Of a DNA stretch of 32,000 nt, positions 3,547 to 32,000 are shown piece after piece (positions within the stretch are counted from its first letter, which is position 1; each line of letters starts with the position of its first letter). The notes beneath the pieces are model-generated. The model had not been told where the DNA came from, made no database searches, and saw nothing but the letters and a program-made list of their open reading frames with translations. The DNA comes from Nonlabens ponticola (GTDB taxonomy: Bacteria > Bacteroidota > Bacteroidia > Flavobacteriales > Flavobacteriaceae): contig NZ_CP034549.1 of assembly GCF_003966335.1 (NCBI RefSeq), forward strand, positions 1,560,001 to 1,592,000, in the 5' to 3' direction. The position numbers and the translations under genes are program-made.

Positions 3547-4413
3547 TTACGCTTTCGCGAAAGCTATCAAAATAATAGCCGCTACTGCGACACCTATACC
3601 TATGTAATTCTTAGGAATCAACCGTTCCTTAAAGATCAATATTCCCAGGGCAGCTGTAAAAAGAACGGTACCCACATGATTAATCGGGAAAACCACACTA
3701 CTCTCCATATCAGTCTTTAATGCGCGGATGATGAAAAATATCGAGAAATAGTTGGGAACGCCCAAAACAATTCCAGCGAGAATAGATCGGCCGTTCAAAT
3801 AGTTGCCCTTGAACGCTTCATATACTAGCACAAGCGTACCCACGATAAAGGCAATCGCAAAACAAGTCGCGCTAAACAACGGCTCGTCGCCAGAAGGAAC
3901 ATGATTCTTTTCTGCATATTTGAGTGTGGTGTCGATCACGCCACTACCTATAAATAGAATGATAGGTAACGCCAGATAACCTTTGGTTAAATCAATGCCG
4001 CTCTTTTTCTTGAGGCTAGCCAGGTAAACGGCCACCAGAGCGAGAAGTATTCCTGCGATTTTGAGCAATCCCAAAGATTCCTCGTACACCCAAATGCCAA
4101 AAACCACTGGAATCACCAGTGACATCTTGCTAGCGACTGCCGCGACCGACAGGCCATTTTTTTGACTCGTGAGTGCCATGACATTAAAAATGCTGAAGAA
4201 TAAAATGCCTAAACCTGCTGCGTACACGAGCCAGTTAGCCTCAGGAATGCTGGATATTGATGTATCGCCTTGATACATAAAATATCCAGTAATCGCAGCA
4301 ACTAGATAATTAATCACAATAGCGTGCAGCGTATTTACTTTAAATACACTGAAATATTTGAAAATCACATACAGCAGACTAGATGTCGCGATGCTAAGAA
4401 TCAACCACATCAT
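3547..4413 (-). CDS. EamA/DMT-superfamily transporter (about 10 TM helices)
   Basis: 288 aa and hydrophobic throughout, with the two-fold repeat architecture typical of EamA. It has a 4-nt ATGA overlap with ribD upstream. The last five residues, AFAKA, are encoded by palindrome copy 1. Confidence 0.7.
   Translation of the reverse strand: MMWLILSIATSSLLYVIFKYFSVFKVNTLHAIVINYLVAAITGYFMYQGDTSISSIPEANWLVYAAGLGILFFSIFNVMALTSQKNGLSVAAVASKMSLVIPVVFGIWVYEESLGLLKIAGILLALVAVYLASLKKKSGIDLTKGYLALPIILFIGSGVIDTTLKYAEKNHVPSGDEPLFSATCFAIAFIVGTLVLVYEAFKGNYLNGRSILAGIVLGVPNYFSIFFIIRALKTDMESSVVFPINHVGTVLFTAALGILIFKERLIPKNYIGIGVAVAAIILIAFAKA
3551..3564. repeat. Iterated palindrome GCTTTCGCGAAAGC, copy 1
   Basis: Exact 14/14 match with flanks c...t. 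It encodes the C-terminal AFAKA plus stop of the EamA transporter on the minus strand. Confidence 0.95.
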
Positions 4414-5444
4414 GAGCGTGAGAAGATTTTATACACGTCGTCTTTAATGAGCTGTCTTGATTTCATGATTGCATTTTTGGGAATGATTGGTGCACTAATA
4501 CCTTCTTTGAAATAGATTTTGGCACCCATGAATTGGTGGATTTCATCCCAACAATCGTTTTCTATAAATAGATCCAGTGTCTTGCGACCACCTTCTATGA
4601 TAACTGATTGAAGTTGATGCTCATATAGAGATTTAATAATATTCTCAAAGCCGTTGCTAGGATCAATATTAATAGTTGGCGCTTCCTTGTTATAGATGTT
4701 GCTATGTACGTCAAGATTTCCTTTGGCGTCAAGTACGATGCGTGTAGGATTAATGCCACTCCAATCGCGAACGGTTAGACTTGGGTTATCTGCAACTAAG
4801 GTGTTGGTACCTACAAGAATTGATTGTTCCTGTGCGCGCAGTTTGTGTACGAGTTGCCTTGAGTACTTATTAGTGATCCAGACTGGCTCACGTTTGTCTC
4901 GCTTTACTGGCGCTATGAAACCGTCTGCAGTTTGTGCCCATTTCAAAACTATAAATGGACGGTGATTTTTATGGTAAGTAAAAAATCGTTTGTTTAATTG
5001 GTTGCATTCTTCTACCAGGACATCTGTTATCACCTCTATGTTTGAGTCGCGTAATAATTGCACGCCGCGACCCGCAACTTTCTTGTGTGGATCCAGTGTT
5101 CCTACGACCACTTTGTTGAATCCTTTGCGCACGATGAGGTCTGCACATGGTGGCGTTTTGCCATGATGTGAACATGGTTCTAGGTTTACGTATAAGGTAG
5201 CTTTCGCGAAAGCGGAATCGTTCCAGCCTCGCTGCTCTGCATCTTTGATCGCGTTGACTTCGGCATGCGGTTGACCTGATTTGTAATGAAAACCTTCTCC
5301 AAGAATGTCGCCATTTTCACCAACAATCACACTACCTACCAAAGGATTGGGATAGGTAGTTCCTAAACCATTGCTGGCTATATCTAGGCAGCGTTGCATG
5401 AATTTATCGTGTTGAGACATGCTCGCAAAAATAGGTTTTGCCAT
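4410..5444 (-). CDS. ribD: Bifunctional riboflavin biosynthesis protein RibD (pyrimidine deaminase / uracil reductase)
   Basis: It has the CDA zinc motifs HAEVNAI and LEPCSHHGKTPPC and a C-terminal RibD reductase domain (KWAQTADGFIA...). The true start may be the internal ATG at 5420 (MSQHDKFMQRC...). Confidence 0.93.
   Translation of the reverse strand: MAKPIFASMSQHDKFMQRCLDIASNGLGTTYPNPLVGSVIVGENGDILGEGFHYKSGQPHAEVNAIKDAEQRGWNDSAFAKATLYVNLEPCSHHGKTPPCADLIVRKGFNKVVVGTLDPHKKVAGRGVQLLRDSNIEVITDVLVEECNQLNKRFFTYHKNHRPFIVLKWAQTADGFIAPVKRDKREPVWITNKYSRQLVHKLRAQEQSILVGTNTLVADNPSLTVRDWSGINPTRIVLDAKGNLDVHSNIYNKEAPTINIDPSNGFENIIKSLYEHQLQSVIIEGGRKTLDLFIENDCWDEIHQFMGAKIYFKEGISAPIIPKNAIMKSRQLIKDDVYKIFSRS
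5200..5213. repeat. Iterated palindrome GCTTTCGCGAAAGC, copy 2
   Basis: Exact 14/14 match with flanks a...g. It encodes AFAKA just upstream of the ribD zinc-binding PC..C motif. Confidence 0.95.
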
Positions 5445-5508
5445 TTTAAGAATTGCTCGACGCGATTAACTTTAGCTTATTTCTATACTTTGCCTTATCC
5501 ATACCTTG

Positions 5509-5516
5509 TATTTTTG
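5509..5516 (+). promoter_or_regulatory. Candidate -7 promoter box TATTTTTG
   Basis: It matches TAnnTTTG and lies 5 nt upstream of the ATG at 5522, so it would give a leaderless or near-leaderless transcript. Confidence 0.3.
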
Positions 5517-5521
5517 ATTGC

Positions 5522-5998
5522 ATGAGAATACGACCTATAAAGCCGCAGGATAACGAGGCTGTAAAAGTTATTATACAAAGTGTCATCATGGAGCATGGTG
5601 CACCTAAAGAAGGTACTGCTTACAGTGATGCTGCAACCCAATCTATGTATGCGGCATATCAAAAACCACGAGCAGCATATTTCGTTCTAGAAAGCGTAGG
5701 AAAAATCATGGGCGTTGCTGGAGTAGCTGAGCTGGATAACTATGATGGTAACGTTTGCGAATTACAAAAAATGTATTTCCTGCCTGAAGCTAGAGGTAAA
5801 GGTCATGGTAAGAAGATGATTGAGCTATGCATGGCTACCGCTCGCAAATTTAAATATCAGCGCATGTATCTAGAGACCATGGATAATATGTATGATGCAC
5901 AAGGATTGTACAAACGTGTGGGTTTTTCTATGCTGGATAAGCCAATGGGCGGCACTGGTCATTATAGTTGTCCCATTCACATGATACTAGATTTATAA
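5522..5998 (+). CDS. GNAT-family N-acetyltransferase
   Basis: The ORF track gives 5453..5998. The ATG at 5522 (MRIRPIKPQDNEAV...) gives the usual GNAT N-terminus. The acetyl-CoA motif is LQKMYFLPEARGKGHGKKMIE. Confidence 0.8.
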   Translation: MRIRPIKPQDNEAVKVIIQSVIMEHGAPKEGTAYSDAATQSMYAAYQKPRAAYFVLESVGKIMGVAGVAELDNYDGNVCELQKMYFLPEARGKGHGKKMIELCMATARKFKYQRMYLETMDNMYDAQGLYKRVGFSMLDKPMGGTGHYSCPIHMILDL

Positions 5999-6006
5999 TT
6001 GCTGCA

Positions 6007-6864
6007 ATGACGCTTCAAGACACTGAAAAAACATATCGTGATCGACTACAGGAATTATATCCTGTTGAAGAGATTGATTCTATCCTCAAAATTGTATGCG
6101 AGGATTTACTCAACTGGAGTCGTGCAGACATCATGATACGCGGTGCGGAACCACTTACTCACTTAAATGAGCAACTACTTCTCAATGCACTTGCGGAGCT
6201 AGAGACAGGAAAACCAGTGCAACACATCACAGGCAAATCCCATTTTTCCGGTCACGTATTTACCGTCAATGATCAAGTGTTAATTCCACGTCAGGAGACT
6301 GAAGAACTAGTAGATTGGGTAATCAAGGATTACCGCAAACATCCTAAGGTCACAATTCTTGATATAGGAACAGGCTCTGGTTGTATAGGAATAAGCCTAG
6401 CAGCAACTTTAAAAGAATCTAAGGTCACGCTGGCAGACATTTCGCCAGAAGCCCTAAAAGTTGCTATGAACAATTCTCAGAATGTTCTCAAGGATAACAA
6501 AGTAGAGCAAAAGCAACTAGATATCTTACAGATAGAAAATCTGCCTTTCTACGATGTTATTGTTAGCAATCCGCCGTATGTGCGAGAACTTGAAAAATCA
6601 GAATTACATACCAACGTACTGGATCACGACCCATCGTTGGCCTTGTTTGTTCCTAATAGCGATGCGCTCAAGTTTTATAGTGCGATATTAAAGCTAGCAA
6701 AGCCACATTTTAAAACAGTCGTGTACTTTGAGATCAATCAATATTTAGGCAATCAAATGAAGGAACTAGCGGCGAGTTTGGGATTTGAGTATGAGCTGCG
6801 GCAAGACCTAAATCGCAATGACCGCATGATGAAATGCTGGCAAGAACAAATCTCACAAGATTAA
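6007..6864 (+). CDS. prmC: Peptide chain release factor N5-glutamine methyltransferase
   Basis: It has the SAM motif ILDIGTGSGCIGISLA and the catalytic NPPY (VSNPPYV). The ATG at 6007 avoids overlapping the GNAT gene; the ORF track starts at 5968. Confidence 0.88.
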   Translation: MTLQDTEKTYRDRLQELYPVEEIDSILKIVCEDLLNWSRADIMIRGAEPLTHLNEQLLLNALAELETGKPVQHITGKSHFSGHVFTVNDQVLIPRQETEELVDWVIKDYRKHPKVTILDIGTGSGCIGISLAATLKESKVTLADISPEALKVAMNNSQNVLKDNKVEQKQLDILQIENLPFYDVIVSNPPYVRELEKSELHTNVLDHDPSLALFVPNSDALKFYSAILKLAKPHFKTVVYFEINQYLGNQMKELAASLGFEYELRQDLNRNDRMMKCWQEQISQD

Positions 6865-8943
<2,079 letters not shown>

Positions 8944-8954
8944 AACTATTGATT

Positions 8955-10178
8955 ATGAAGTATCTGATTACCGTATTGATTGTAATATTCACTGCTAATG
9001 CCGTCGCGCAGGATTGGAATGCAGGAGAACTGCTAAAATCCATTGAGGTTGTCGATCCTATTGAAGCTCTGGGAAATTCTTTGAACCGTGTCAAAATGCA
9101 AAACGTGGAATCGGCAGATCCTAAGGCAAGCGCCATGGTCATAACTTATTATGAACTGGACGGCGATAGTCTTAAAAAATATAATGAACGCACTATTTCC
9201 ATAGAAGAGGAGCGCAGCATTCAACCCGAATGGAGGTTTGTCAAGCAGAGAAAACTAGAAAATACGACCACAGCATTAGAGTTCGTCCGTGACGGTAAAA
9301 CTTTTACCAGACATCACTTTATAGTTGATGGCGACCAGCTAATAACCAAATATTCTGAAACTGATAGTATTTCCTACCACTATGATTTGAAGAAAAGATT
9401 AGTAAGAACAGATTATTTTGAGCAAGAGGCAAGAATAAGAGATGGCAGCGTGGCTTATGAAGATGAGCAGTCTGACAATGGCGAGATGATCGTCAATGAA
9501 GAAACGGTGATTCAGGACAATGATGGTGATTATGAGGATGTAGAATTAATTGAAGAAGCTGCTGAGGTAATAGAAGTCGTAGAAGATGAATATACAGACG
9601 ACATCATACGTTTGTTGCCAGCGCCTGTAATGAAACCTGTAAAAACTACCTTCTATACATATTATGAGAATGATAGAATTACCTCCATCCGTACTATTGA
9701 AAATCAAGCCTATCAGTACAATCCACAAGTAGATCTATTGACTGATAAATTAAAAAGCTTTACTTATGACGGTGAGAGAATGCTCACAGCGATTGAGTCA
9801 AAACGGTCGCTGGAAACCATTAAAGATCTTCCAGCAAATAATTCACTCGTTTACTGGGTCGAGAATGTAGTAGATGATCAAGTTCCATATAAAGTAGCAG
9901 AAACTGACATTGCACTTTCTTACACTGATGAGCCTAACGTATTTACACTTACAGAATATAGAACGCGACAAGGTGAGCGCAAACAACGAGTGAGTGTTTT
10001 GATAACACGAGGCAAGAACGGCGTGACCAGTATGGAAGGAACTAGTGATAATTATCGTTTCTTAAATACCTTTGAATATGATGAGAACGGCTACCTAATT
10101 AAAGAAACCGAGGAATCTTACAGAGATGGAGCGCTAGCAAGAAAATTGGTCAAGAAACGCGAGTTCTTGTATGAATAG
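8955..10178 (+). CDS. Secreted hypothetical protein with YD-like repeats and an acidic tract
   Basis: The ATG at 8955 (MKYLITVLIVIFTANAVAQ) gives a Sec signal peptide; the ORF track uses the TTG at 8949. Recurrent motifs of the form x-Y-x-Y-D/E-x-x-x-x-L (ISYHYDLKKRLVRTDY, TFYTYYENDRITSIRT, FTYDGERMLTAIE, FEYDENGYLIKETE) resemble RHS/YD repeats. There is a central D/E-rich stretch. Confidence 0.5.
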   Translation: MKYLITVLIVIFTANAVAQDWNAGELLKSIEVVDPIEALGNSLNRVKMQNVESADPKASAMVITYYELDGDSLKKYNERTISIEEERSIQPEWRFVKQRKLENTTTALEFVRDGKTFTRHHFIVDGDQLITKYSETDSISYHYDLKKRLVRTDYFEQEARIRDGSVAYEDEQSDNGEMIVNEETVIQDNDGDYEDVELIEEAAEVIEVVEDEYTDDIIRLLPAPVMKPVKTTFYTYYENDRITSIRTIENQAYQYNPQVDLLTDKLKSFTYDGERMLTAIESKRSLETIKDLPANNSLVYWVENVVDDQVPYKVAETDIALSYTDEPNVFTLTEYRTRQGERKQRVSVLITRGKNGVTSMEGTSDNYRFLNTFEYDENGYLIKETEESYRDGALARKLVKKREFLYE

Positions 10179-10360
10179 TCAGGCTTTTTTTTATTGAAAT
10201 AAGCGTCAAAGAATAGGTATTCTAACCCTTAATCAGTAATGGTCTCGTACACGTCTCGTATCGTTCAAATCAGCGATAAATTTGGCGATTTCTAAATACG
10301 CTTTAACTTCGATTAAGCAACTTCATAGCAATGAGTAAAATGTGTGATTGTCCACAGTGT

Positions 10361-10987
10361 TTACGTACGCTTTAGTTCAATGACTCCAAAAACATTATCA
10401 TAACCGTATTTTAAATAGGCGTCAATTCCTTTATACACTTCTATTTGATAATTATATAAATCCGATTTTATTTTTTTGAGTTTTCTTTTCAACTTTCGAT
10501 TCCTCTTCGGTTTTCTTTCCAGTAATCCGTAAGAATTGGCAATTGCATTTTCTTGTCGATATTTAATACTGTCAATGATATATGTTGTGTAACTTTTGTT
10601 TTTGAAGTCATCGTAAATAACATAGACTATTCCATCCACTTTGTTGAGCAGTGCTTTTCCGTCCTTCTCAATGTGAATTTCATTCAAAAAAGGATTGAAA
10701 CCGTATTGCTTTATTTGGTTCGCGTCTTGTTTCGTTTCTTGGTCAGATTCTATTAAGATATTTCCCTCGTTGTTTGAGTAAGTCAGTTTTATTCTCAGTT
10801 GAGGTTGCATATGCACGTGAATAGAAATTAGTTCGACGACTGAGTCATTTTTAAATTCTAAATAGTGGTCTCGATTGATACTGTCAGAAGCTATTCCGTA
10901 ATATACTTTGTTAAATTCCTGCGCATAAGATTCGCACGCAATGAGGAAAATCAGAAGAGTTATTAAAATTCTCAATGGTTTTTTCAC
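10361..10987 (-). CDS. Hypothetical lipoprotein or secreted protein with a Lys/Arg-rich segment
   Basis: 208 aa with signal peptide MKKPLRILITLLIFLIACESYAQ (possible lipobox Cys) and a basic run RKPKRNRKLKRKLKKIK. The segment is visibly AT-richer than its neighbours. I recognise no family. Confidence 0.45.
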   Translation of the reverse strand: MKKPLRILITLLIFLIACESYAQEFNKVYYGIASDSINRDHYLEFKNDSVVELISIHVHMQPQLRIKLTYSNNEGNILIESDQETKQDANQIKQYGFNPFLNEIHIEKDGKALLNKVDGIVYVIYDDFKNKSYTTYIIDSIKYRQENAIANSYGLLERKPKRNRKLKRKLKKIKSDLYNYQIEVYKGIDAYLKYGYDNVFGVIELKRT

Positions 10988-10998
10988 ATTGTGGGCAA

Positions 10999-12725: not shown

Positions 12726-12737
12726 ATGTGATTGTTA

Positions 12738-12745
12738 TACCTTTG
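12738..12745 (+). promoter_or_regulatory. Candidate -7 promoter box TACCTTTG
   Basis: It matches TAnnTTTG and lies 16 nt upstream of the ATG at 12762, within a 36-bp divergent intergenic region. Confidence 0.4.
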
Positions 12746-12761
12746 TGGTAAGTAAAAGTAC

Positions 12762-13268
12762 ATGATTTTTGACGTATTAAAGCATCGATGGCTGCGCCTT
12801 GAGGAGCAAAAAATCAAGCAAATGGGACGTGATCGCAGCATCTCGTCGATGGATAGTGCGATTGTTCTTTACAATACCGATGAGGTGCCGGATTTGACGG
12901 TTTTAAAAAGCTGGAAAGAGCTTCTAACTTTGAAAGAGCTCACTCCTGTAGGATTTACTAGCGATAAAAAAGCAGTTGCAAGACCTAATGAGGTGTTGCT
13001 TGATGAAGGTGCGATCAAATGGTCAGGCGGCCTGGCGAGTGATGACTTAAAAGAATTGTTGAGTAAAAAATTTGATCTTCAAATCAACTTTTTAAACCAT
13101 ACTACAATTATGCAGTCCTATGTATTACATGCCTTGCACTCAAAATTGAAGGTAGGTTTTCCTACTCAAGAAGAGTCGCATTATGACATTGCAATTGATG
13201 TAGGAATGAAGGATGTAGATACTTTTACTCGTGAGTTAAAAAAATATCTAACGATTATAAAAAATTAA
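12762..13268 (+). CDS. Conserved hypothetical protein upstream of dapA
   Basis: A 168-aa ORF with a clean codon pattern, separated by 1 nt from dapA. I recognise no motifs with confidence. Confidence 0.5.
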
Positions 13269-13269
13269 A

Positions 13270-22727: not shown

Positions 22728-22792
22728 ATATTCATCAATATTTAAGATCGTTAATATTGGGTTAAAGGCTTATTAACACTTTGGCTAAATGT

Positions 22793-22800
22793 TAAATTTG
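22793..22800 (+). promoter_or_regulatory. Candidate -7 promoter box TAAATTTG
   Basis: It matches TAnnTTTG but ends only 4 nt before the GTG at 22805. Either the kinase mRNA is leaderless, the true start is the ATG at 22841, or the box is fortuitous. Confidence 0.3.
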
Positions 22801-22804
22801 CCTC

Positions 22805-24376: not shown

Positions 24377-24393
24377 TCAATCAATCTATAATT

Positions 24394-25110
24394 ATGGAAA
24401 CTGAAAACAAAAAAATTCTGCTTGTTGAGGATGATCCAAATTTTGGAACAGTTCTCAAAGACTACCTAATCATGAATGATTTTGATGTCGTACATGCCAA
24501 AAACGGTATGGAAGGCTTTGAAAAATTCAAGAAAGACAACTATGATCTATGTATCCTAGACGTAATGATGCCTTACAAGGATGGCTTCACACTTGCTAAG
24601 GAGATCAGAGAAAAAAATGAAGATGTGCCTATCGTTTTCCTAACCGCTAAGGCGATGAAAGAAGACGTGTTAAGAGGTTACAAAGTAGGAGCAGACGACT
24701 ACTTGAACAAGCCGTTTGACAGTGAGGTTTTACTCATGAAAGTAAAAGCGATCATACAACGCAAAGGCCAAGACAGCATCGCTGATTCTAAGGAGTTTGA
24801 ATTCCAGATTGGTAATTTCCACCTGAATTCAAAGCTTAGATTCTTGTCCTACAATGATCAGGAGCCTATCAAGCTATCACCTAAGGAAAATGAGTTGCTT
24901 AGACTACTAGCGCTACACCTTAATGACTTGATGCCACGTGAGCTAGCATTGACTAAGATATGGAGAGATGACAATTACTTCACTTCAAGATCTATGGACG
25001 TTTACATCGCAAAACTGCGTAAGTATTTGAAACCAGACGATAATGTCGAGATCGTGAATATTCACGGTGAAGGTTTCCGTTTACTTGTAAAGGATCAAGT
25101 AGATTACTAG
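24394..25110 (+). CDS. OmpR/PhoB-family response regulator (REC plus winged helix)
   Basis: It has the REC motifs ILLVEDD, phospho-acceptor LCILDVMMP, LTAK and KPF. The C-terminal trans_reg_C domain has LSPKENELLRLL...VYIAKLRKYL...GEGFRL. Confidence 0.92.
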   Translation: METENKKILLVEDDPNFGTVLKDYLIMNDFDVVHAKNGMEGFEKFKKDNYDLCILDVMMPYKDGFTLAKEIREKNEDVPIVFLTAKAMKEDVLRGYKVGADDYLNKPFDSEVLLMKVKAIIQRKGQDSIADSKEFEFQIGNFHLNSKLRFLSYNDQEPIKLSPKENELLRLLALHLNDLMPRELALTKIWRDDNYFTSRSMDVYIAKLRKYLKPDDNVEIVNIHGEGFRLLVKDQVDY

Positions 25111-25117
25111 AAACTAA

Positions 25118-26035
25118 TTACTGATTTTCCATAATTGATTTATGAACCTGCCGCACGATTTGCGTGTGGCTGGTTCTATAATCAAACCAGTTAATGTCTG
25201 GATCTTTGCGATACCAGGTCAACTGTCTTTTGGCAAATCTTCTAGAGTTGCGTTTGATCAATCTTATTGCTTCTTCAATGTCATAAGTTCCCTCTAGAAA
25301 AGGAAAAACCTCTTGATAGCCTACGGTTTTCATGGCTCTCAATTCTTTATGTGGTAATAATTCCTGCACTTCTTTTATTAGACCATTCTGCAGCATCACG
25401 TCTACACGCCTATTGATGCGATCATAGAGCTCTTCTCGTGGAGCTTCTAATCCTACTTTATAAATTGTAAATTCTCGTGTACTGGCAACACCTGTTTTAA
25501 ATGAGCTGTATGGTTGACCGCTAGACCTTATGATGGATAAGGCTCTCAACACGCGTCTAGAATTATCTTGATCTATCTCATTAAAGGTCAGTAGATCTTT
25601 TTGTCTTAGCTCTTTTAGTAAGTATGACAATCCATGATTTTTGAGATCCGATTCTAGTTGATCGAGAATTGCTGGATCTACATCAGGAAAATAGTCAAGG
25701 CCATGAGTTACTGCTTTTTCATAAAGTGTGCTGCCGCCTACCATGATCGCGACATCATGTTTGTCAAATAATCTTTTCAATAGATCCATTGCGTCGCGTT
25801 CAAAATCACCAACGCTGTAATCATCGTGAATGCTTCTATTCTGGATAAAATGATGCCGCGCTACCTGTAATTCAACTTCGGTAGGCACAGCTGTTCCTAT
25901 ACTCATTTCCTTGAACAACTGTCTTGAATCGCAGGAAAGTATTTCGGTTTTGTACGCTTTCGCGAAAGCTAAACTCAACGCAGTCTTACCTACCGCAGTA
26001 GGGCCAACAATGCATATTAAATGTTTACTAGACAT
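25118..26035 (-). CDS. miaA: tRNA dimethylallyltransferase
   Basis: 305 aa with the P-loop IVGPTAVGKT, plus SCDSRQLFKEMSIGTA and GGSTLY. It also has a C-terminal YAKRQLTWYR-like segment (FAKRQLTWYRK). Confidence 0.95.
   Translation of the reverse strand: MSSKHLICIVGPTAVGKTALSLAFAKAYKTEILSCDSRQLFKEMSIGTAVPTEVELQVARHHFIQNRSIHDDYSVGDFERDAMDLLKRLFDKHDVAIMVGGSTLYEKAVTHGLDYFPDVDPAILDQLESDLKNHGLSYLLKELRQKDLLTFNEIDQDNSRRVLRALSIIRSSGQPYSSFKTGVASTREFTIYKVGLEAPREELYDRINRRVDVMLQNGLIKEVQELLPHKELRAMKTVGYQEVFPFLEGTYDIEEAIRLIKRNSRRFAKRQLTWYRKDPDINWFDYRTSHTQIVRQVHKSIMENQ
25955..25968. repeat. Iterated palindrome GCTTTCGCGAAAGC, copy 7
   Basis: Exact 14/14 match with flanks c...t. It encodes AFAKA directly after the MiaA P-loop (GKTALSLAFAKAYKTE). 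Confidence 0.95.
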
Positions 26036-26909
26036 CTAAAGAATATCCACATTTATGGCAGTATTCTGCATCATCCTGATGTTTGCGAGCCATACAATTT
26101 TGACAAACTTGTGTGTTGACGTGGCGATAATTGGGATCTTCAATCTGTAGTTTGCCATTATCACTATCATCACTATCCTTGCCGCCAGTTGTATATTCTG
26201 CACTTACAATACCTGTAGGTACAGCGATGATACCATAACCCATAATCATAATAATAGTAGCCAGAAATTGACCCATAGGAGTGACGGGCGCAATATCACC
26301 AAAACCTACTGTGGTAAGTGTCACAATGCACCAATAAATTGATACGGGTATACTTACAAAGCCACTTTCTGCACCTTCTACTAGATACATGATGGTTCCC
26401 ATGATGATTGAAATAACCAAGACGGCAAACAGAAATACCAGTATTTTGGGTAAGCTTGATTTGATTGCTTTACTCAATTTATCTGCCTCACCGATAAATC
26501 GTGTGATCTTAAGAATACGAAAAACCCTCAATAGACGTAAGGCGCGCACGGCTAATAATGCATTGATACCACCTATGAAAAAGGTCAGGTACAACGGTAT
26601 TGTCGACAAAAAATCAATGATACCGTAAAAACTAAAAATATACTTAGTAGGTTTATTGATGGAGATGATGCGCAGTATGTACTCGATAGTGAAGAACACA
26701 GTGATGATCCATTCTGCCAGAATGAATTCATCTGCATACTTAGCGCCAAGCGCTGGAACGCTTTCCAGTAGTACCAGCAGCACGCTAATTATAATTACGA
26801 TTAGCAGCGTCACGTCAAATGCCTTACCTACTGGTGTATCGGCCTCGTAAATTACTTCGTGAATTTTGCGGCGCCAGGCGCTAGATATTTTGGTAGTGCT
26901 TTTAGGCAT
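26028..26909 (-). CDS. Voltage-gated-type K+ channel (6TM, Kv-like) with a C-terminal CxxC...CxxC zinc-ribbon tail
   Basis: It has an S4-like helix with basic residues at every third position (VRALRLLRVFRILKITRF) and the pore signature TLTTVGFGD. The tail is CQNCMARKHQDDAEYCHKCGYSL. It overlaps miaA by 8 nt, and its ATG shares a nucleotide with the stop of the upstream E1 gene. Confidence 0.8.
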   Translation of the reverse strand: MPKSTTKISSAWRRKIHEVIYEADTPVGKAFDVTLLIVIIISVLLVLLESVPALGAKYADEFILAEWIITVFFTIEYILRIISINKPTKYIFSFYGIIDFLSTIPLYLTFFIGGINALLAVRALRLLRVFRILKITRFIGEADKLSKAIKSSLPKILVFLFAVLVISIIMGTIMYLVEGAESGFVSIPVSIYWCIVTLTTVGFGDIAPVTPMGQFLATIIMIMGYGIIAVPTGIVSAEYTTGGKDSDDSDNGKLQIEDPNYRHVNTQVCQNCMARKHQDDAEYCHKCGYSLDV

Positions 26910-29323
26910 TAAGCTTTGCTAGGGTATTTGCTTGGGTTTGCCTCATTCATAATGTTGTACGCCTTATCAAAAACATCATCTGCGCTAGGCTTAGAGAAAT
27001 AGTCTCCATCAGTTCCGTATGCCGGTCTATGATCTTTGGCGGTCAAACATTGTGGTTTGCTATCCAAATATCTCCAGGCGTTTTGGCCATCAACTATAGA
27101 TTGTAATATAAAGGCACTTGCACCACCTGGAACATCTTCATCCACGACTAGCAACCTGTTCGTTTTCTTAACGCTCTCAATAATCTCATGCTCTATATCA
27201 AATGGCAATAAGGATTGCACATCAATAACTTCTACGTCAACGCCTACTTGCGTTAGAAAATCTGCAGCTTCCATCACGATACGTAAGGTTGAGCCGTAAG
27301 AGACGATGGTTAGGTCGTTTCCTTCTTTCAAAGTTTCTATTTTACCTAATGGTGTCTTGAATTCGCCCAGATTTGAAGGTAATTGTTCTTTAAGGCGATA
27401 ACCATTGAGACACTCAACTATTAAAGCTGGCTCGTCGCTAGCCATCATGGTGTTGTAAAATCCTGCAGCTTGAGTCATGTTTCTAGGTACCAAAACATGA
27501 ATACCGCGCACTAGATTAATGATACCACCCATAGGTGAGCCACTGTGCCATATACCTTCCAATCGGTGACCTCTAGTTCTTATGATTACTGGAGCTTTTT
27601 GCCTACCACCAGTTCTATACTGTAAAGTGGCAAGGTCATCGCTCATGAGTTGCAGGCAGTAGAGTAGGTAATCTAGATATTGAATCTCTGCGATAGGGCG
27701 CAGGCCTCTCATGGCCATCCCAATACCTTGTCCTAGAATAGTTGCTTCACGTATCCCGGCATCTGCAACACGCAGCTCGCCATACTTTTCTTGCATTCCT
27801 TCTAGACCTTGATTTACATCGCCTATTTCTCCTGCATCTTCTCCAAAAATGAGTGACTCTGGATACTTGGCAAAAATCGCATCAAAATTATCACGCATGA
27901 TCACGCGCGCATCAACTTCCTCAGGATTATCAGCATATTGCGGAGCAACCGATTCGATATTAGTTGCAGCCCACTGTGATTGACTATATAAGTGGCCACC
28001 GTACGTATCAGATAGGGTATTATTATAATTTGAGATCCATTCATTCAATTGCTTGATGGTATCATGGGTCTCACCTAATGTCAATCGTGCTATTTTTCTA
28101 GCAGTTGCAAGTACTTCCTTGCGTATAGGTTCTTTGATGTTTGATAACTCAGTAACCAATGGTTGAATAAAGTTCTTGTTTGAAGAAACTGAAACTACCT
28201 GGTTGAGTAATGACACTAGTTCATCACGCTCTGCAAGGATAGGAGCTAGGTAGTTATTCCACGCAGCTTTTTTGCCTTCACGCACTTGTTTTTTAATATC
28301 TTTTTCGAGGGCTTCCAACTCATCAGCGGTAGAAAGATTGTTTTCCAGAATCCACTCACGGAATTTTACATTACAATCATGTTCACGTTCCCACGCAAGT
28401 CTATCCTCATCTTTATAGCGTTCGTGTGATCCACTGGTACTGTGGCCTTGCGGTTGCGTGAGCTCATGCACGTGGATTAATATTGGTACATGCTCATCAC
28501 GAGCGATGCTACCTGCTTTCTCATAGGTTTCAACAAGCTCTGGATAATTCCATCCTTTTACTTTGAATATTTCATAACCATCATGATTTTCATCACGCTG
28601 GAATCCTGCTTGAATGGTGCTTATATCTTCCTTAGTGGTTTGATGTCTCGCATGTACTGAGATACCGTACTCGTCGTCCCAAACGCTAATTACCATAGGT
28701 ACTTGAAGCACGCCACCAGCATTAAAAGTTTCCCAGAAGTGACCTTCACTGGTACTTGCATTACCTATTGTACCCCAAGCAACTTCATTTCCTTTATTTG
28801 AGAAACCGTTATTATCATCTATGAGATCGTTGTGACGATATATTTTGGATGCTTGTGCCAGTCCTAATAATCTGGGCATTTGGGCAGCCGTTGGACTAAT
28901 ATCTGCACTAGAGTTTTTTTGATCTACTAGTCTTTTCCATGAGCCATCTTCATTCAAACTATGGGTTGCAAAATGACCACCCATTTGACGTCCGGCACTC
29001 ATTGGTTCATGCGCTAGATCAGTATTTGCATACAATCCAGCAAAAAATTGTTCAATGGTTAATTCTCCTATCGCCATCATGAATGTCTGATCCCGATAGT
29101 ATCCACTGCGAAAATCTCCATTCTTAAAAGCTCGTGCCCAGGCAATTTGCGGTAATTCCTTACCATCGCCAAAGATTCCAAACTTTGCCTTACCAGTAAG
29201 TACCTCACGACGACCCAGCAAACTACACTCACGGCTTGTGACTGCTAGCTTGTAATCGTTGATGACCTCGTGTTTAAAGTCTTGTTTTTGAAGTTCTTTT
29301 TCTGTGGTTTCCTGTACCTGCAT
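26909..29323 (-). CDS. Fused alpha/beta E1 component of a 2-oxoacid dehydrogenase (TPP-dependent)
   Basis: About 800 aa. The N-terminal half resembles E1-alpha (PRLLGLAQA, TSEGHFWETFNAGGVLQVP). The C-terminal half resembles E1-beta/transketolase Pyr plus C domains (FGEDAGEIGDVNQG, IREATILGQGIGMAMRGLRPIAEIQYLDY, DLTIVSYGS). I prefer the ATG at 29323 (MQVQETTEK...) over the TTG at 29374 used by the ORF track. Confidence 0.8.
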   Translation of the reverse strand: MQVQETTEKELQKQDFKHEVINDYKLAVTSRECSLLGRREVLTGKAKFGIFGDGKELPQIAWARAFKNGDFRSGYYRDQTFMMAIGELTIEQFFAGLYANTDLAHEPMSAGRQMGGHFATHSLNEDGSWKRLVDQKNSSADISPTAAQMPRLLGLAQASKIYRHNDLIDDNNGFSNKGNEVAWGTIGNASTSEGHFWETFNAGGVLQVPMVISVWDDEYGISVHARHQTTKEDISTIQAGFQRDENHDGYEIFKVKGWNYPELVETYEKAGSIARDEHVPILIHVHELTQPQGHSTSGSHERYKDEDRLAWEREHDCNVKFREWILENNLSTADELEALEKDIKKQVREGKKAAWNNYLAPILAERDELVSLLNQVVSVSSNKNFIQPLVTELSNIKEPIRKEVLATARKIARLTLGETHDTIKQLNEWISNYNNTLSDTYGGHLYSQSQWAATNIESVAPQYADNPEEVDARVIMRDNFDAIFAKYPESLIFGEDAGEIGDVNQGLEGMQEKYGELRVADAGIREATILGQGIGMAMRGLRPIAEIQYLDYLLYCLQLMSDDLATLQYRTGGRQKAPVIIRTRGHRLEGIWHSGSPMGGIINLVRGIHVLVPRNMTQAAGFYNTMMASDEPALIVECLNGYRLKEQLPSNLGEFKTPLGKIETLKEGNDLTIVSYGSTLRIVMEAADFLTQVGVDVEVIDVQSLLPFDIEHEIIESVKKTNRLLVVDEDVPGGASAFILQSIVDGQNAWRYLDSKPQCLTAKDHRPAYGTDGDYFSKPSADDVFDKAYNIMNEANPSKYPSKA

Positions 29324-29380
29324 TTGCGTGATTGTGTATCTAACAAAGGTAAGGGAAAGCCTATGTAGTTGCAACCACCG

Positions 29381-32000
29381 CTAGTACCAGCGTCTCTTGA
29401 ATAATTTGATAAATAAGCCTAATTCCAGCGTAACGATAAAGCGTATTTTCTGGTCATAGTTTTCCTGCGCTATTTCCCAGCCATTATTACTGTAAACGGG
29501 AAAATATAATTCAAAGAAATCCTGTAACAAATTGAGTCTTATACCACTATCATAAACAAATTGCGGGTTCTCAAATTTGTTCTTTACAAAACCTACATCA
29601 CCGTATGCAAAAATGTATTTCCAGATGCTGTAAGAAGCATTTGCCGTGGTAATCCATTCGTTGGCAAATGCAGGTTCTAATTGAGATTTAAAACCACCTT
29701 CTGCAACGATGTATTGTTGTGAGAATAAACCGCTATCCTCTGATCTACCGTAGTAATCATAGTCAAACAGATAATCTGTAGGTCGATCTAGTGCAAAAGA
29801 GAAGAAGTCATTATCACCAGTGTCATTATAAATAAAGCTGCCGGCATATAACCTCAAATTGAGCTGACGCTGGTCTTTAAAAAGTTTTCTCCATTCAATA
29901 CGACCTGTCACTTTACCGAATTGTGCTGAGATTTCAGTACCTACATTGTACGAAAAGAAGCGCTTCAAATTAGGATCAGAATGATTCCAATTCAATGCAA
30001 ACACATTGTAATCTGGATCTTCAACAGGACTGGCTGGATCGCGATCCCTATTTACCCAAATGTTACGTATAGTCAATGATTGTCTCATGTTACTACGCAA
30101 ATCCTCTGGTCTGAACGCGAGATTCATAAAACCAGAAACACGCCTATACATCAAGTCATCCTCGTATGAAAAGGTATTGGCGCCAGCACCATATCTCACC
30201 TGGAATAATCGCTGGTCACGATCCTCTATGGGGTGCGCATAACTCAAACCAATAGAGCCCACAAGTTTGTTGGACCCAAAGCCATAAGTGGGTTTAATAC
30301 TGTATCTAAAGGGCTTACTCAATAGATTACCGTTGTAAAAACGAGGTCCAATCGTCAATCCATCATAAAGATTGTACCCGACGTCTGGCATCACAAAAAC
30401 CTCGGTTCTTGTCGGGTCTTCCACATCTTTGAACAGTTTTACACTTAGCGGTCTACTTAATGACGGCAAGCCTTTTAACGTGCGGTAGTTGTCACGCTGT
30501 GAGAATTCAGGTAGTAATTTTTCATAGTTAACGGCTACGCGGTTTGCAAGCTTTCGCGAAAGCGTAACAGTTGTATCGCCTATAAAACCAGGTATATACT
30601 TTTTGCTCACGATTGAATCATTGAACAAGCTGTAAACGGAAACAGGAATTACTCGATCAGATTTATTCTTGATCACAATATCCACCGAGTCCGTTGACTT
30701 TTTGACGCGTTTGATCTTCCAGTCCATGCGCTGGTGCTGGGTGATATAATCATCAAAAAACCAGGCAGTAGGCTGCTGGCTAGATTGTTCCAGCAATTCT
30801 TGAAAATCATGCCCGTCAACAATACGGTTGTTACTAAGTTGGTACAGCTGTTTGATGGCTTGCTCAACATTGTCATTGTCTAGGTAATCGTCCAGATACT
30901 GTAGCCCAACGGCTGCTTTGTAGGGTATTCCCAACTCTTGATTATACTTGACCAGCTCATCGGATGGCGTGGTAATCGCCTGATCTAGGTTAAGTCTAGA
31001 TGTATTGAGATAGAGTAGTGGATATTGCTCGTTGAATTTGAGTTTGGCAGCATTGAAACTGCGCAGCCCAAAGAAATCACTAAATTTACCTGCAAGCTTC
31101 AGGTCAGGATAGTGAATTTCCTGATAATCCATTATGATACTCACGATAATCGCTTGTTGCAACCAGAAATTTTCTCTAGGATTAGTGCGCACTCCAGTCT
31201 CGACCCATTTACGAGTCAAGGTCTTAAGCATGCGTATCTCATAGCTAAAACCATCAGGAAACGGATTAATAAAATCTGGCAAACTGCTTAAACCATAAAC
31301 AGGACTCTCACGATAATAACGGTCAGACAATAGTAGCTGGTCATGTTTATAGTCACCTAATCGTTCACCCAGATAAGCGGTGATCTTTTCATTGATCTTA
31401 AGCTTTTCATCAAAATTGAGATCCTTTTCTTGGATATCGCTTACAATGGTCGCCTGTGGTGTTGGGTAATAAGTAAATTTTCCTGGACGCTTATCTAGAT
31501 GAAGCAAAATTTCTTGAAATCCTTCACCTTCAAATAGGTAGCTGTTCTTATTCTTACCGGGTGCGACAGTTATTGTGGTAATGTTACTTGTTGCATTGAG
31601 CGCTGACGGTATATGCAATGATACCTTGACATCTAGTGGCGCTCCATAAAAGTCGTCCAGATCCTTATGTGAGAAGTAGTCCCATTTGCCATCCTTGAAT
31701 ACCGCTGGATGCAAGTACCAGTATCTCAAATCATAATTACCGCTACTTGTTACTCCATAACTTGTAAAATCATTTTCAGGAATCTTTACCTCATAGTTCA
31801 ATCGAAATTCTTGACTTGATCCTGGTAATAGTGGATTATCTAAATCAATTTTAAGGATGTCTGGCTGATTCTCGACCCGTGAAAAGTTGTAACGCGCTGC
31901 AGTAGCAGAATCGATTCTAGTATAACCACGATCTCTATCACTTGAGAATTCAAAGTTGTTTTTAAAATCTTGAGCAAACCTAGCAGCCAGCGGCGTTTGT
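29381..32000 (-). CDS. Large M1-aminopeptidase-like protein with degenerate zinc site and beta-barrel-like C-terminus (5' end beyond the window)
   Basis: The ORF-track start at 31801 is a TTG inside an open frame. My hand translation of 31802-32000 stays open (...RFAQDFKNNFEFSSDRDRGYTRIDSATAARYNFSRVENQPDILKIDLDNPLLPGSSQEFRL-NYEVKIPE...). The N-part follows the M1 N-domain pattern, but the HEXXH...E positions read KTLTR...WLQQ. The C-terminal ~350 aa are rich in alternating aromatic/polar strands and end in ...KRRWY. Confidence 0.5.
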   Translation of the reverse strand, partial: QTPLAARFAQDFKNNFEFSSDRDRGYTRIDSATAARYNFSRVENQPDILKIDLDNPLLPGSSQEFRLNYEVKIPENDFTSYGVTSSGNYDLRYWYLHPAVFKDGKWDYFSHKDLDDFYGAPLDVKVSLHIPSALNATSNITTITVAPGKNKNSYLFEGEGFQEILLHLDKRPGKFTYYPTPQATIVSDIQEKDLNFDEKLKINEKITAYLGERLGDYKHDQLLLSDRYYRESPVYGLSSLPDFINPFPDGFSYEIRMLKTLTRKWVETGVRTNPRENFWLQQAIIVSIIMDYQEIHYPDLKLAGKFSDFFGLRSFNAAKLKFNEQYPLLYLNTSRLNLDQAITTPSDELVKYNQELGIPYKAAVGLQYLDDYLDNDNVEQAIKQLYQLSNNRIVDGHDFQELLEQSSQQPTAWFFDDYITQHQRMDWKIKRVKKSTDSVDIVIKNKSDRVIPVSVYSLFNDSIVSKKYIPGFIGDTTVTLSRKLANRVAVNYEKLLPEFSQRDNYRTLKGLPSLSRPLSVKLFKDVEDPTRTEVFVMPDVGYNLYDGLTIGPRFYNGNLLSKPFRYSIKPTYGFGSNKLVGSIGLSYAHPIEDRDQRLFQVRYGAGANTFSYEDDLMYRRVSGFMNLAFRPEDLRSNMRQSLTIRNIWVNRDRDPASPVEDPDYNVFALNWNHSDPNLKRFFSYNVGTEISAQFGKVTGRIEWRKLFKDQRQLNLRLYAGSFIYNDTGDNDFFSFALDRPTDYLFDYDYYGRSEDSGLFSQQYIVAEGGFKSQLEPAFANEWITTANASYSIWKYIFAYGDVGFVKNKFENPQFVYDSGIRLNLLQDFFELYFPVYSNNGWEIAQENYDQKIRFIVTLELGLFIKLFKRRWY
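30550..30563. repeat. Iterated palindrome GCTTTCGCGAAAGC, copy 8
   Basis: Exact 14/14 match with flanks a...g. It is read in the third frame, as (T)LSRKL(A), in the M1-like protein. Confidence 0.95.

Follow-up and report, generated by a model that had tools for sequence, protein, structure and literature searches.

The window, by which we mean the whole 32-kb stretch of Nonlabens DNA analysed, adjoins dnaA and contains eight exact copies of the perfect 14-base palindrome GCTTTCGCGAAAGC, flanked on both sides by arms of biased base composition, as follows.

3551..3564: copy 1, in the EamA transporter gene (3547-4413, minus strand), in its final codons, read as AFAKA and then the stop codon; outer bases C..T
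5200..5213: copy 2, in ribD (4410-5444, minus strand), AFAKA at residue 78; outer bases A..G
8536..8549: copy 3, in ligA (6871-8943, plus strand), AFAKA at residue 556; outer bases C..A
12664..12677: copy 4, in the 5'-nucleotidase C-domain lipoprotein gene (11934-12725, minus strand), within the signal-peptide region, AFAKA at residue 17; outer bases C..T
16382..16395: copy 5, in coaBC (15371-16579, plus strand), AFAKA at residue 338; outer bases C..A
20358..20371: copy 6, in the GT2 glycosyltransferase gene (20198-21196, plus strand), RFRES frame, residue 54; outer bases C..T
25956..25969: copy 7, in miaA (25118-26035, minus strand), AFAKA at residue 23; outer bases C..T
30550..30563: copy 8, in an 806-residue ORF (29381-31801, minus strand), LSRK frame, residue 413; outer bases A..G
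3521..30593: the whole set with its flanks, measured from the left arm of the first copy to the right arm of the last; both sides of each core carry a strand-biased arm of about 30 nt

All eight copies had been noticed in the preliminary description of this DNA, which placed the seventh one base too early, at 25955. As it had stated, none is intergenic, all eight lying within long ORFs on the plus and minus strands. Seven of its gene names agree with the Pfam families found at the copies (EamA, RibD, LigA, 5'-nucleotidase C-domain, CoaBC, GT2 and MiaA), but its label 'M1-like' for the gene holding copy 8 is unconfirmed, as this ORF had no match in Pfam or NCBIfam. The copies do use three frames, yet six of the eight are read as A-F-A-K-A, with RFRES and LSRK used once each. 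None of 100 dinucleotide-preserving shuffles of the window held any copy, and Markov models (orders 0-5, copies of the palindrome masked during training) gave 3e-6 to 1e-4 expected copies per 32 kb, the earlier estimate of 6e-5 being the order-0 value; eight copies are thus observed where at most 1e-4 are expected. The search for variants with one or two mismatches that had been proposed returned none in the window, and the four matches with three mismatches are near the shuffle level of 1.5. TTCGCGAA is confined to the eight copies, as had been claimed for the core.

The element consists of three layers, namely the invariant 14-bp palindrome, a usual C/G pair on each side of it and a pair of arms, each about 30 nt long, whose biases mirror one another. 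With the extra pair the core is usually the 16-mer CGCTTTCGCGAAAGCG, and in the window species it always has the one-sided form CGCTTTCGCGAAAGCW. In unconstrained DNA a 22-bp extension, TTAC-core-GTAA, is preferred, and the palindrome is extended by at least 4 bp in 9 of 28 non-coding copies as against 4 of 69 coding ones. Read on the top strand, the arm 5' of the core is rich in G and T with little C, and the one 3' of it is rich in A and C with little G; the bias peaks at 6-15 nt from the core, where C falls to 7.9% from a background of 19% (97 unique sites), and is gone by about 35 nt. Enriched k-mers in the arms include GT, TG, TGT, GTT and GTTG. The bias is equal in all three frames and in non-coding copies and reaches synonymous sites, third codon positions having C in 0-2 of 38 cases upstream and G in 0-3 of 38 downstream. 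Arm skew scores in the window range from 2 to 10 (8, 9, 7, 10, 9, 10, 10 and 2 for copies 1 to 8, the last being the lowest), compared with 0 +/- 4.5 at random positions. The preliminary description had seen no similarity beyond one or two flanking bases, which holds for alignable sequence but not for composition. The arms accompany the core, being missing or weak in orthologues that lack it (9.1 with the core and 3.7 without; 7 for ligA copy 3 and 0.2 in its 12 core-less orthologues), and lineage-specific sites already have full arms (7.2 versus 8.1). Between species, arm identity is barely above background. Viral copies have weaker arms (3.9 versus 7-8, P = 6e-4), which suggests that the arms may be a slowly accumulating by-product and not a functional requirement.

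The spacing of the copies is more even than random (window CV 0.29, P = 0.002; locus L002, P = 0.0006; pooled P < 5e-5), and pairs closer than 900 bp are few. Even spacing is also said to have been described for the Haemophilus USS by Karlin and colleagues in 1996. Four features were absent from the first reading of the window, namely the bias towards one frame, the extension to a 16-mer, the evenness of the spacing and the strand bias of the arms.

The palindrome is found in Nonlabens and Dokdonia, seawater bacteria of the Flavobacteriaceae, at about one per 4,000 bases in unrelated genes. In the orthologous 22-kb loci of 14 other Nonlabens and four Dokdonia assemblies, a comparison covering about 22 kb per genome, exact copies number 2-8 per locus in Nonlabens (14 loci) and 4-5 in Dokdonia (four loci), that is, 1 per 4.0 kb, from which about 700-1000 exact sites per genome can be extrapolated. 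The ligA loci overall hold 97 exact, 9 one-mismatch and 12 two-mismatch copies, most of the variants being decayed orthologues of perfect copies. Loci of Flagellimonas, Muricauda, Arenibacter and UBA5422 (21 loci, 418 kb) contain no copies. Thirty further metagenomic, viral or prophage loci carry at least two copies each and have essentially no similarity to the window region, signifying that the element is spread over chromosome regions unrelated to the window. Prophage-like contigs have the motif at roughly 1 per 6-15 kb, and two virulent Nonlabens phages of 35.7 kb each, both encoding their own ERF/YqaJ recombinases, have none. The sister-species count proposed earlier therefore gives a density like that of the window and a lineage-specific motif, and the concern that the window might be a local fluke cluster is answered by this density together with the copies in unrelated contigs. 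An assembly or vector artefact, also raised in the preliminary description, is rejected, since the motif occurs in the 2006-era scaffold BBFL7, in isolate genomes, in MAGs of the two genera and in unrelated metagenome contigs. Literature searches found no earlier description of the palindrome, just as none had been known for Flavobacteriia.

Among five Nonlabens species with 77-88% nucleotide identity, five of six motif windows are perfectly kept, as against 1.3% of background 14-mers. In other Nonlabens loci, the EamA copy is perfect at the same codons in nine, the ribD copy is perfect in eight, missing from three and decayed in one, the lipoprotein copy is perfect in ten with one mismatch in two, and the coaBC copy is perfect in nine with one mismatch in one. 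The GT2 copy is perfect at the same position in loci L001 and L002; the ligA copy is present in the window species only, inside a variable linker of about 27 residues restricted to Nonlabens; and the miaA position lies outside the orthologous loci compared. Decayed copies often have C6->T or G9->A at the central CpG, and changes at position 5/10 are as frequent among them.

That the copies are a conserved protein motif (AFAKA), or in-frame remnants of a small mobile element or MITE, might be read from the AFAKA frame, used in 38 of 69 unique coding copies as well as in six of the eight in the window, and from the location of some sites in indel-prone loops or linkers. This reading is, however, effectively refuted. 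The ORFs of Nonlabens and Dokdonia contain 76 AFAKA peptides where 0.13 would be expected, but 72 of the 76 are encoded by the exact palindrome with rare codons that stay fixed (TTC serves for 21% of Phe residues and GCG for 15% of Ala residues), and the two further frames and non-coding copies exist. Outgroups have different residues at these positions, LLKEA or LLQKA in ribD, and ALKKL (Dokdonia) or AKGKL (Flagellimonas) in coaBC, so AFAKA is not kept in distant taxa without the palindrome, the finding that had been named as pointing to selection on protein. The coaBC site differs by substitutions alone, without an indel; the copies are mostly coding, orthologues contain no inserted element, and flanks are alike in composition without being alignable between copies. 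All the exclusions made earlier (protein motif, REP/MITE and gene duplication) hold. As copies are perfect at the same codons across species, use rare codons and replace different outgroup residues, selection acts on the DNA, and the palindrome is almost certainly a real, selected, DNA-level iterated signal.

Judging from the sequence pattern, we tentatively favour a 'self' DNA tag of the HIP1/DUS/Chi type, which a dimeric protein would process symmetrically on both strands and which may serve uptake or recombination; we hold this as possible rather than probable. That the dyad is perfect and variants are almost lacking suggests that duplex DNA is recognised by a highly specific homodimeric protein, and the mirror-image arms suggest a polar process on both sides of the core; it is this polarity that makes a recombination-promoting tag the preferred mechanism. 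On each side, the strand that enters the core in the 5'->3' direction is GT-rich, with C and A depleted; its 3' end would lie at the core, and processing there would leave recombinogenic 3'-ended strands on either side, by which the tag would start or stimulate recombination of homologous DNA, be it imported or broken. The arms may come from repeated single-strandedness or template use that fixes C->T and A->G deamination, or from selection for GT-rich sequence preferred by RecA, which favours TGG/GT-rich DNA resembling Chi (PMC3763553). HIP1 is kept by selection (PMC5861425), gives up to 100-fold higher transformation and has been proposed to have uptake and Chi-like roles (bioRxiv 10.1101/2024.09.10.611283), and in the related Riemerella columbina, also of this order, transformation favours the species' own DNA, as found in a study whose k-mer search went no further than 10 bp (PMC7965970). 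The element would then be palindromic and correspond in function to DUS/USS, Chi and cyanobacterial HIP1, and its presence on prophage-like contigs and absence from the two virulent phages fit such a tag. The weaker viral arms and the near-background arm identity across species speak against it. Single-stranded tails after Chi or during uptake are kilobases long, so that a bias fading within about 35 nt fits better with a protein footprint or very-short-patch resynthesis. DUS/USS and Chi are 5-12 nt long and non-palindromic, and to our knowledge a 14-16-bp perfect palindrome is unprecedented for either.

Even spacing and conservation are equally expected for sites of a dimeric chromosome-organising protein, acting in the manner of Noc, SlmA or ParB as an anchor of loops or domains, with the arms as an extended footprint. 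The perfect dyad of 14-16 bp with its 22-bp extension in unconstrained DNA, the spacing of about 4 kb with few close pairs and the conserved orthologous sites would suit such a protein, as would the TTTC/GAAA half-sites, which by eye we take to match those of parS and NBS, but the gap between them is 2 bp here and 4 bp in parS and NBS. Known systems have tens of sites and tolerate degeneracy, unlike the hundreds implied here, all exact, and a duplex footprint hardly explains a G-versus-C bias of one strand over 25-30 nt. A similar role was proposed for HIP1 from its periodic distribution (PMC5861425), yet for the present element we consider it rather unlikely. Methylation-linked biased repair, after Elhai's HIP1 model, could spread the motif with no cellular function needed, if an orphan methyltransferase modified the CGCG/TCGCGA centre and Vsr-like or nicking repair restored and spread the site; the arms would then have been shaped by repeated rounds of very-short-patch resynthesis, which would occur 3' on each strand and copy the 5'-arm strand. 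Nick translation starting from a nick in the core and running 3' would fit their polarity and 10-35-nt range, lesions of the template strand (C->T, A->G) being fixed and those of the replaced strand erased, and the weaker viral arms and the common central CpG changes are consistent with this. CGCG is avoided five-fold in the virulent Nonlabens phages (19 observed, 88 expected), implying that the host has a restriction-modification system specific for CGCG, and cyanobacterial HIP sequences co-occur with cognate methyltransferases (PMC4390886). However, repair of methylated C alone cannot hold 14-16 positions exact across species, such drive does not predict even spacing, decay at position 5/10 is equally frequent, CGCG and TCGCGA have an ordinary frequency in host DNA apart from the motif, and lineage-specific sites have full arms. 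We regard this mechanism as unlikely.

An RNA element, that is, a small hairpin flanked 5' by GU-rich and 3' by AC-rich, G-poor sequence and serving as a processing, pausing or Rho-loading signal, appears highly improbable. The palindrome would give an identical transcript from either strand whatever the gene orientation, the longer extensions of non-coding copies involve covarying flanks, and the G-poor, C-enriched 3' flank recalls a Rho utilisation (rut) site. Yet the core hairpin is weak (-1.9 to -4.3 kcal/mol), arm pairing does not exceed composition-based prediction (mean z = -0.18, P = 0.19), the window matched no Rfam family, intergenic copies lie in regions of all orientations, and a 5-bp stem would not typically be kept exact at 14 of 14 bases.

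The analogues named in the preliminary description (HIP1, DUS/USS and dispersed palindromic binding sites) are the right set for comparison. REP/BIME elements and MITEs are also dispersed palindromic repeats of comparable copy number, but they lie between genes, measure 20-40 bp or more, are imperfect and owe their spread to transposition (RAYT), whereas the present element is mostly coding, arises by substitution and has only 14-16 bp in common between copies. The parS, Noc NBS and SlmA SBS sites resemble it as perfect dyads of 14-16 bp with TTTC/GAAA half-sites that can be intragenic, and differ in numbering from a few to about 100, tolerating mismatches, being regionally distributed and having half-site spacing 2 bp off. 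Chi (RecBCD/AddAB) is similar in its frequency, in E. coli about 1 per 4-5 kb, in its association with GT-rich sequence on the strand whose 3' end lies at the site, and in being a 'self' marker that is absent from many phages, but it differs from this long palindrome in its length of 5-8 nt, its asymmetry, its recognition in single-stranded DNA and its co-orientation with replication. The Neisseria DUS and Pasteurellaceae USS likewise have hundreds to thousands of exact copies in coding DNA in tolerated frames, few one-off variants, conservation in core genes, species 'dialects' and absence from virulent phage genomes, and the USS also have flanking composition preferences and even spacing; they differ in being 9-12 nt, asymmetric and present at about 1 per kb, and in having demonstrated uptake bias and a receptor, the Nonlabens element being a palindrome. 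HIP1 (GCGATCGC) and the alternate HIPs of cyanobacteria belong to another phylum than the Bacteroidota studied here and have another sequence, 8 bp instead of 14-16 bp, at up to 1 per gene instead of about 1 per 4 kb; the Nonlabens element differs further in its even short-range spacing and in having arms of some 30 nt with strand bias, the arms being a feature that the HIP1 papers cited do not mention. They are nevertheless alike in being perfect GC-centred palindromes, hugely over-represented, mostly intragenic in tolerated frames with orthologous positions kept by selection (PMC5861425), lineage-specific with variant forms and centred on a typical methyltransferase target, and for HIP1 too the function is debated between chromosome structure, repair drive and transformation.

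The palindrome GCTTTCGCGAAAGC was present in eight exact copies in the window, starting at 3551, 5200, 8536, 12664, 16382, 20358, 25956 and 30550; the preliminary description had placed the seventh copy one nucleotide too early, at 25955. Its claim of strong over-representation held, with eight copies seen against about 1e-4 expected. Markov models of orders 0-5, trained with the copies masked, predicted 3e-6 to 1e-4 copies, and none of 100 dinucleotide-preserving shuffles of the window contained a single copy. The motif is the sole repeated 12-mer of the window and, as had been reported, the core TTCGCGAA is absent outside the eight copies. A search of the window allowing up to three mismatches found no variants with one or two mismatches and four matches with three, where 1.5 were expected. 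Each copy lies in a different long open reading frame and these frames are found on both strands, in agreement with the earlier account. Pfam matches supported seven of the assigned gene labels (EamA, RibD, LigA, 5'-nucleotidase C-domain, CoaBC, GT2 and MiaA), whereas the label 'M1-like' for the eighth is unconfirmed. The copies are read as AFAKA in six genes, as RFRES in one and as LSRK in one, and no Rfam family was matched in the window. As the DnaA gene stands at its start, the window adjoins the replication origin region; oriC was not located from the GC skew of the window, which tracks gene orientation.

Open reading frames of the window: the DnaA gene and frames with no family match
280-1707, minus strand, DnaA, with DnaA_N, Bac_DnaA and Bac_DnaA_C domains
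8949-10178, plus strand, 409 aa, no Pfam or NCBIfam match
10361-10987, minus strand, 208 aa, no Pfam or NCBIfam match
21202-22137, plus strand, 311 aa, no Pfam or NCBIfam match
29381-31801, minus strand, 806 aa, no Pfam or NCBIfam match, carries the eighth motif copy

To delineate its distribution, GTDB species representatives were scanned with LigA, which yielded 39 loci with about 22 kb read per genome. Genome-wide numbers of the motif are extrapolations from this length, and its taxonomic boundary is sampled through the genera reached by the scan. The window belongs to a Nonlabens species; its closest LigA identity, 77-81%, was with Nonlabens.

Exact copies of the motif in the 39 ligA loci
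Nonlabens or Nonlabens-like, 14 loci: 2-8 exact copies per locus
Dokdonia or Dokdonia-like, 4 loci: 4-5 exact copies per 22 kb
Flagellimonas/Muricauda, Arenibacter, UBA5422 and others, 21 loci: 0 exact copies (418 kb analysed)

Together with the window, the Nonlabens and Dokdonia sequences (19 sources) hold 97 copies in 391 kb, or one per 4.0 kb, beside which these loci show just 9 one-mismatch and 12 two-mismatch variants. The recount in sister species that had been proposed earlier thus restricts the motif to Nonlabens and Dokdonia among the loci compared, with none in the 21 others. It is carried by a Sanger-era scaffold of strain BBFL7 from 2006 and is therefore no artefact of sequencing or assembly. 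No alternate iterated palindrome was found in the Flagellimonas or Arenibacter loci. The Flagellimonas/Muricauda loci (L015-L035) contain heptamer tandem repeats (GACTCCT, GACTTCT and GAGGCTA; up to about 16 copies per locus) that are unrelated to the palindrome.

As the ligA loci are syntenic with the window, they all lie near the origin, and for this reason metagenome and IMG/VR contigs were scanned for the 14-mer. Most hits were single copies at any GC content, as chance predicts, and 21 metagenome and 9 viral loci carried two to six copies each at 33-47% GC. These multi-copy loci have essentially no tblastx similarity to the window region, so within a restricted clade the element is spread over many unrelated parts of the chromosome. 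All metagenome and viral loci were selected by presence of the motif, and the density of about one copy per 3.9 kb in the cellular multi-copy loci is that of loci chosen for bearing it. Two marine metagenome contigs, L160 (MAAC01016659.1; 6 copies in 11.9 kb) and L159 (Ga0115565_10004982; 4 copies in 8.9 kb), reach about one copy per 2 kb, which is twice the Nonlabens density.

Six of the window sites (EamA, ribD, lipoprotein, coaBC, GT2 and ligA) are covered by other loci. In most other Nonlabens species, five of these sites (EamA, ribD, the lipoprotein signal peptide, coaBC and GT2) hold a perfect copy at identical codons, and the synonymous positions beside conserved copies vary among these species. 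The ligA copy is confined to the window species and lies in a variable, Nonlabens-specific linker. Across five aligned Nonlabens species (77-88% nucleotide identity), perfect conservation was found in five of the six motif windows versus 1.3% of other 14-column windows. The peptide AFAKA, encoded in the commonest frame, occurs 76 times in the open reading frames of Nonlabens and Dokdonia against 0.13 expected and is missing from the Flagellimonas set. The exact palindrome encodes 72 of these 76 occurrences, the other four being CpG-transition decays, and does so with codons that are otherwise little used (TTC accounts for 21% of the codons for Phe, GCG for 15% of those for Ala). The motif-free outgroups read differently at these places: CoaBC has ALKKL or AKGKL, and RibD has LLKEA or LLQKA. 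The preliminary description had reasoned that conservation of AFAKA in palindrome-free taxa would point to protein-level selection; no such conservation was seen, and the rare fixed codons along with the differing outgroup residues rule this explanation out. Judged from these alignments, the target of selection is the DNA signal, and the proteins have been shaped to suit the motif rather than the reverse. In-frame insertion of a mobile element is likewise ruled out at coaBC and ribD, where orthologues differ by substitution, the linker at the ligA site being too diverged to tell insertion from substitution. The Dokdonia copies are mostly at other positions than those of Nonlabens, so sites turn over at greater evolutionary distance with density kept.

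The acidic, variable linker of about 27 aa that Nonlabens LigA carries between its helix-hairpin-helix regions (window 8455-8560, LigA aa 529-563; L001-L010) is absent in Dokdonia, Flagellimonas, Arenibacter and UBA5422. The locus L010 (MAG binchicken_co405_11; positions 3348, 5000 and 16414, and the orthologous EamA, ribD and lipoprotein sites) holds several decayed copies (GCTTTCGCaAAAGC, GCTTTtGCaAAAGC and GCTTaCGCaAAAGC) beside three perfect ones. Decay here is mainly C6 to T or G9 to A at the central CpG, a pattern which hints that the central C may be 5-methylated, and this lineage may be losing the element.

The copies are spaced more evenly than random in the window (CV 0.29, P = 0.002), in the Nonlabens locus L002 (P = 0.0006) and in six pooled loci that are partly non-independent (P < 5e-5), and few pairs lie less than 900 bp apart. 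The positions just outside the 14-mer are also constrained. In other genomes the outer pair is C..G on both sides in 120 copies (73%), on one side in 43 and on none in 2; the per-side frequency of outer C/G is 0.86 and the two sides are independent, so the usual core is the 16-mer CGCTTTCGCGAAAGCG. All eight copies of the window species have the one-sided extension CGCTTTCGCGAAAGCW, where W is T in six and A in two, and the probability of no two-sided copy among eight is 3e-5 by a post hoc statistic. The one-sided form looks like a species dialect, which may give the palindrome a polarity; in the window six one-sided 16-mers are on the plus and two on the minus strand, which is not significant. 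Among non-coding copies the palindrome tends to be longer and its flanks covary, as in gtatac-core-gtatac and tagttcc-core-ggaacta, with TTAC-core-GTAA as the extended consensus. Extension by at least 4 bp was seen at 9 of 28 non-coding versus 4 of 69 coding unique sites.

Flank composition was determined over 97 unique sites, after collapsing non-independent orthologous copies and pooling both orientations. On the strand entering the core 5' to 3', at 6-15 nt out, C drops to 7.9% (background 19%) and A to 25% (30%), and G and T rise to 26% (19.5%) and 40% (31%); GT, TG, TGT, GTT and GTTG are the enriched words. The bias returns to background by about 35 nt from the core. Since the motif is palindromic, such a pattern cannot result from the way the sites happen to be oriented, and the arms are therefore truly mirror-symmetric. 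The skew score, which measures this bias, is positive for all eight window copies (2 to 10). In orthologues without the core it is 3.7 versus 9.1 overall, and at the ligA site 0.2 versus 7. A coding artefact is ruled out, as the bias is frame-independent, extends to non-coding copies (6.1-7.1 in frames 0, 1, 2 and non-coding DNA versus 0 +/- 4.5 at random positions) and affects third positions on both sides. When the 38 unique sites in the AFAKA frame are oriented by gene, third codon positions show C at 0-2 of 38 upstream and G at 0-3 of 38 downstream, and second codon positions in the arms are likewise biased. Stalling of RNA polymerase on the sense strand or fork direction is an unlikely source, as the two arms show equal bias when sites are oriented by gene. 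The arms were also considered as a long hairpin, which was rejected: flank complementarity is about that of shuffled partners, pairing does not exceed composition (folding z = -0.18) and the core hairpin is weak, hence the arms are not a stem. The palindrome is extended by at least 4 bp at only about 13 of the 97 sites, mostly intergenic.

The motif is also carried by viruses. Two contigs with three copies each are genuine phage or prophage DNA: L128, which encodes a portal protein, capsid, prohead protease, connector and HNH endonuclease, and L092, which encodes a depolymerase and an S49 protease. Four viral contigs, each from a different metagenome (L128:6705, L044:573, L153:7492 and L156:10650), share one copy in a prohead protease gene, so the host signal is maintained by a temperate phage lineage. 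Motif-bearing viral contigs are host-like in tetranucleotide usage and have about one copy per 10-15 kb over whole contigs and one per 6.4 kb in the parts fetched. Their arm score of 3.9 is about half the cellular 7-8 (P = 6e-4 versus cellular sites and P = 5e-4 versus random positions). P12024S and P12024L, the two virulent phages of Nonlabens that have been sequenced, contain neither the motif nor a near-variant in 35.7 kb each. They each encode a DNA methyltransferase and ERF/YqaJ recombination proteins, and strongly avoid CGCG (19 observed, 88 expected), GGCC (0, 70) and CCGG (4, 71), which implies that their Nonlabens host has restriction systems against these sites. No avoidance of TCGCGA or CGCG was seen outside the motif in host DNA.

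What these features show is a clade-specific palindromic signal that is evenly spaced, has polar arms and is maintained by selection on the DNA. The perfect dyad with almost no variants would imply a dimeric duplex-DNA-binding protein of high specificity, and the separation of G from C on one strand, mirrored across the core, would imply a strand-polar transaction on both sides. The strand enriched in G/T and depleted in C/A is the one that would end 3' at the core. It might be repeatedly exposed as single-stranded DNA, or be reused as template in short-patch resynthesis such that C to T and A to G deamination is fixed and lesions of the partner are erased; alternatively, selection could favour GT-rich sequence of the kind preferred by RecA, which resembles Chi (PMC3763553).

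We rank first, with tentative and somewhat less than even confidence, that the copies act as a self-DNA tag in uptake or recombination in the manner of DUS, Chi or HIP1. Such a tag would account for the even spacing, per-site selection, dialects and arm polarity as well as for the motif on prophages and its absence from two virulent phages, and HIP1 provides a precedent by its effect in transformation (bioRxiv 10.1101/2024.09.10.611283). The dyad, spacing and conservation would also be explained if the copies were binding sites of a chromosome-organising protein, ranked second and rather unlikely, but the copy number, exactness and strand-specific arms fit it poorly. Methylation-linked biased repair, placed third and also improbable, would best explain why the arms have a scale of 10-35 nt and why they are weaker in viral copies but leaves the even spacing and the exactness at all 16 positions unexplained. 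With a weak hairpin, unpaired arms and no Rfam match, an RNA element is very improbable, and a peptide motif or mobile element is effectively excluded. The self-tag, chromosome-organiser and biased-repair readings are not mutually exclusive, and HIP1 is currently discussed under all three. A bolder version of the self-DNA tag, which we regard as doubtful, would make the element a new structural type, in effect a bidirectional Chi/DUS hybrid, and the first case in Bacteroidota of a sequence-specific signal for recombination or uptake of 'self-DNA'. A dimer would bind the 16-bp palindromic core and cut or unwind the DNA symmetrically, and either flank would give a 3'-ended, GT-rich invading strand. 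Gene flow among species of marine flavobacteria would then be gated by dialects such as the one-sided CGCTTTCGCGAAAGCW of this genome.

To our knowledge, genome-wide exact oligomer signals come from very few lineages, namely DUS of Neisseriaceae, USS of Pasteurellaceae, cyanobacterial HIP1, Chi and KOPS. Each of these has taught something about how DNA is taken up, recombined or handled as a chromosome. What maintains highly iterated palindromes has been asked for 30 years, and a second, independent one in abundant marine heterotrophs is a new system in which to ask it; the mirror-image bias within about 30 nt is a new measurable clue that points to a polar, two-sided DNA transaction. For DNA of Nonlabens and Dokdonia the motif is also a highly specific marker in taxonomy and binning, and it may help to separate resident prophages from virulent phages (none in the two virulent Nonlabens phages examined). 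Should the HIP1 precedent hold, it could provide a simple means to better transformation efficiency in flavobacteria that are genetically hard to manipulate. A full-text literature search returned nothing relevant on the motif sequence or on HIP or uptake sequences in Bacteroidetes or Flavobacteriaceae. Riemerella columbina prefers its own DNA in transformation, and one k-mer search for uptake sequences in the same order stopped at 10 bp (PMC7965970).

Among known systems, we found no description of strand-biased arms for any other highly iterated palindrome. REP, BIME and MITE elements are intergenic, imperfect longer palindromes recognised by insertion versus empty sites, whereas this motif lies in long open frames (8/8 in the window and 69/97 unique copies) and its coaBC and ribD orthologues differ by substitution. 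Sites of the parS/NBS type are few per genome, tolerate degeneracy and have a 16-bp dyad TTTC-N4-GAAA; the motif occurs about once per 4 kb, is always exact and has the spacing N2 (TTTC-GC-GAAA). A conserved peptide motif would keep its residues in palindrome-free taxa and leave synonymous codons free, unlike what is seen here. Chi is similar in density but is short, asymmetric, read by RecBCD/AddAB and co-oriented with replication, whereas the motif is a 14-16-bp palindrome. As a candidate uptake sequence it is, like DUS and USS, a lineage-specific, high-copy exact oligomer in tolerated frames with few variants, and it resembles USS in length, exactness and spacing. A palindrome of the HIP class would also have a cognate, often orphan, DNA methyltransferase that recognises it or its core, at which the CGCG avoidance of the virulent phages and the frequent CpG transitions in decayed copies hint only indirectly. 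HIP1 proper (GCGATCGC) belongs to cyanobacteria and differs in sequence and phylum from this motif of Flavobacteriaceae. As in the HIP class, however, a short perfect palindrome is many-fold over-represented in coding and non-coding DNA with sites conserved between species above background, and the motif behaves as a highly iterated palindrome like HIP1.
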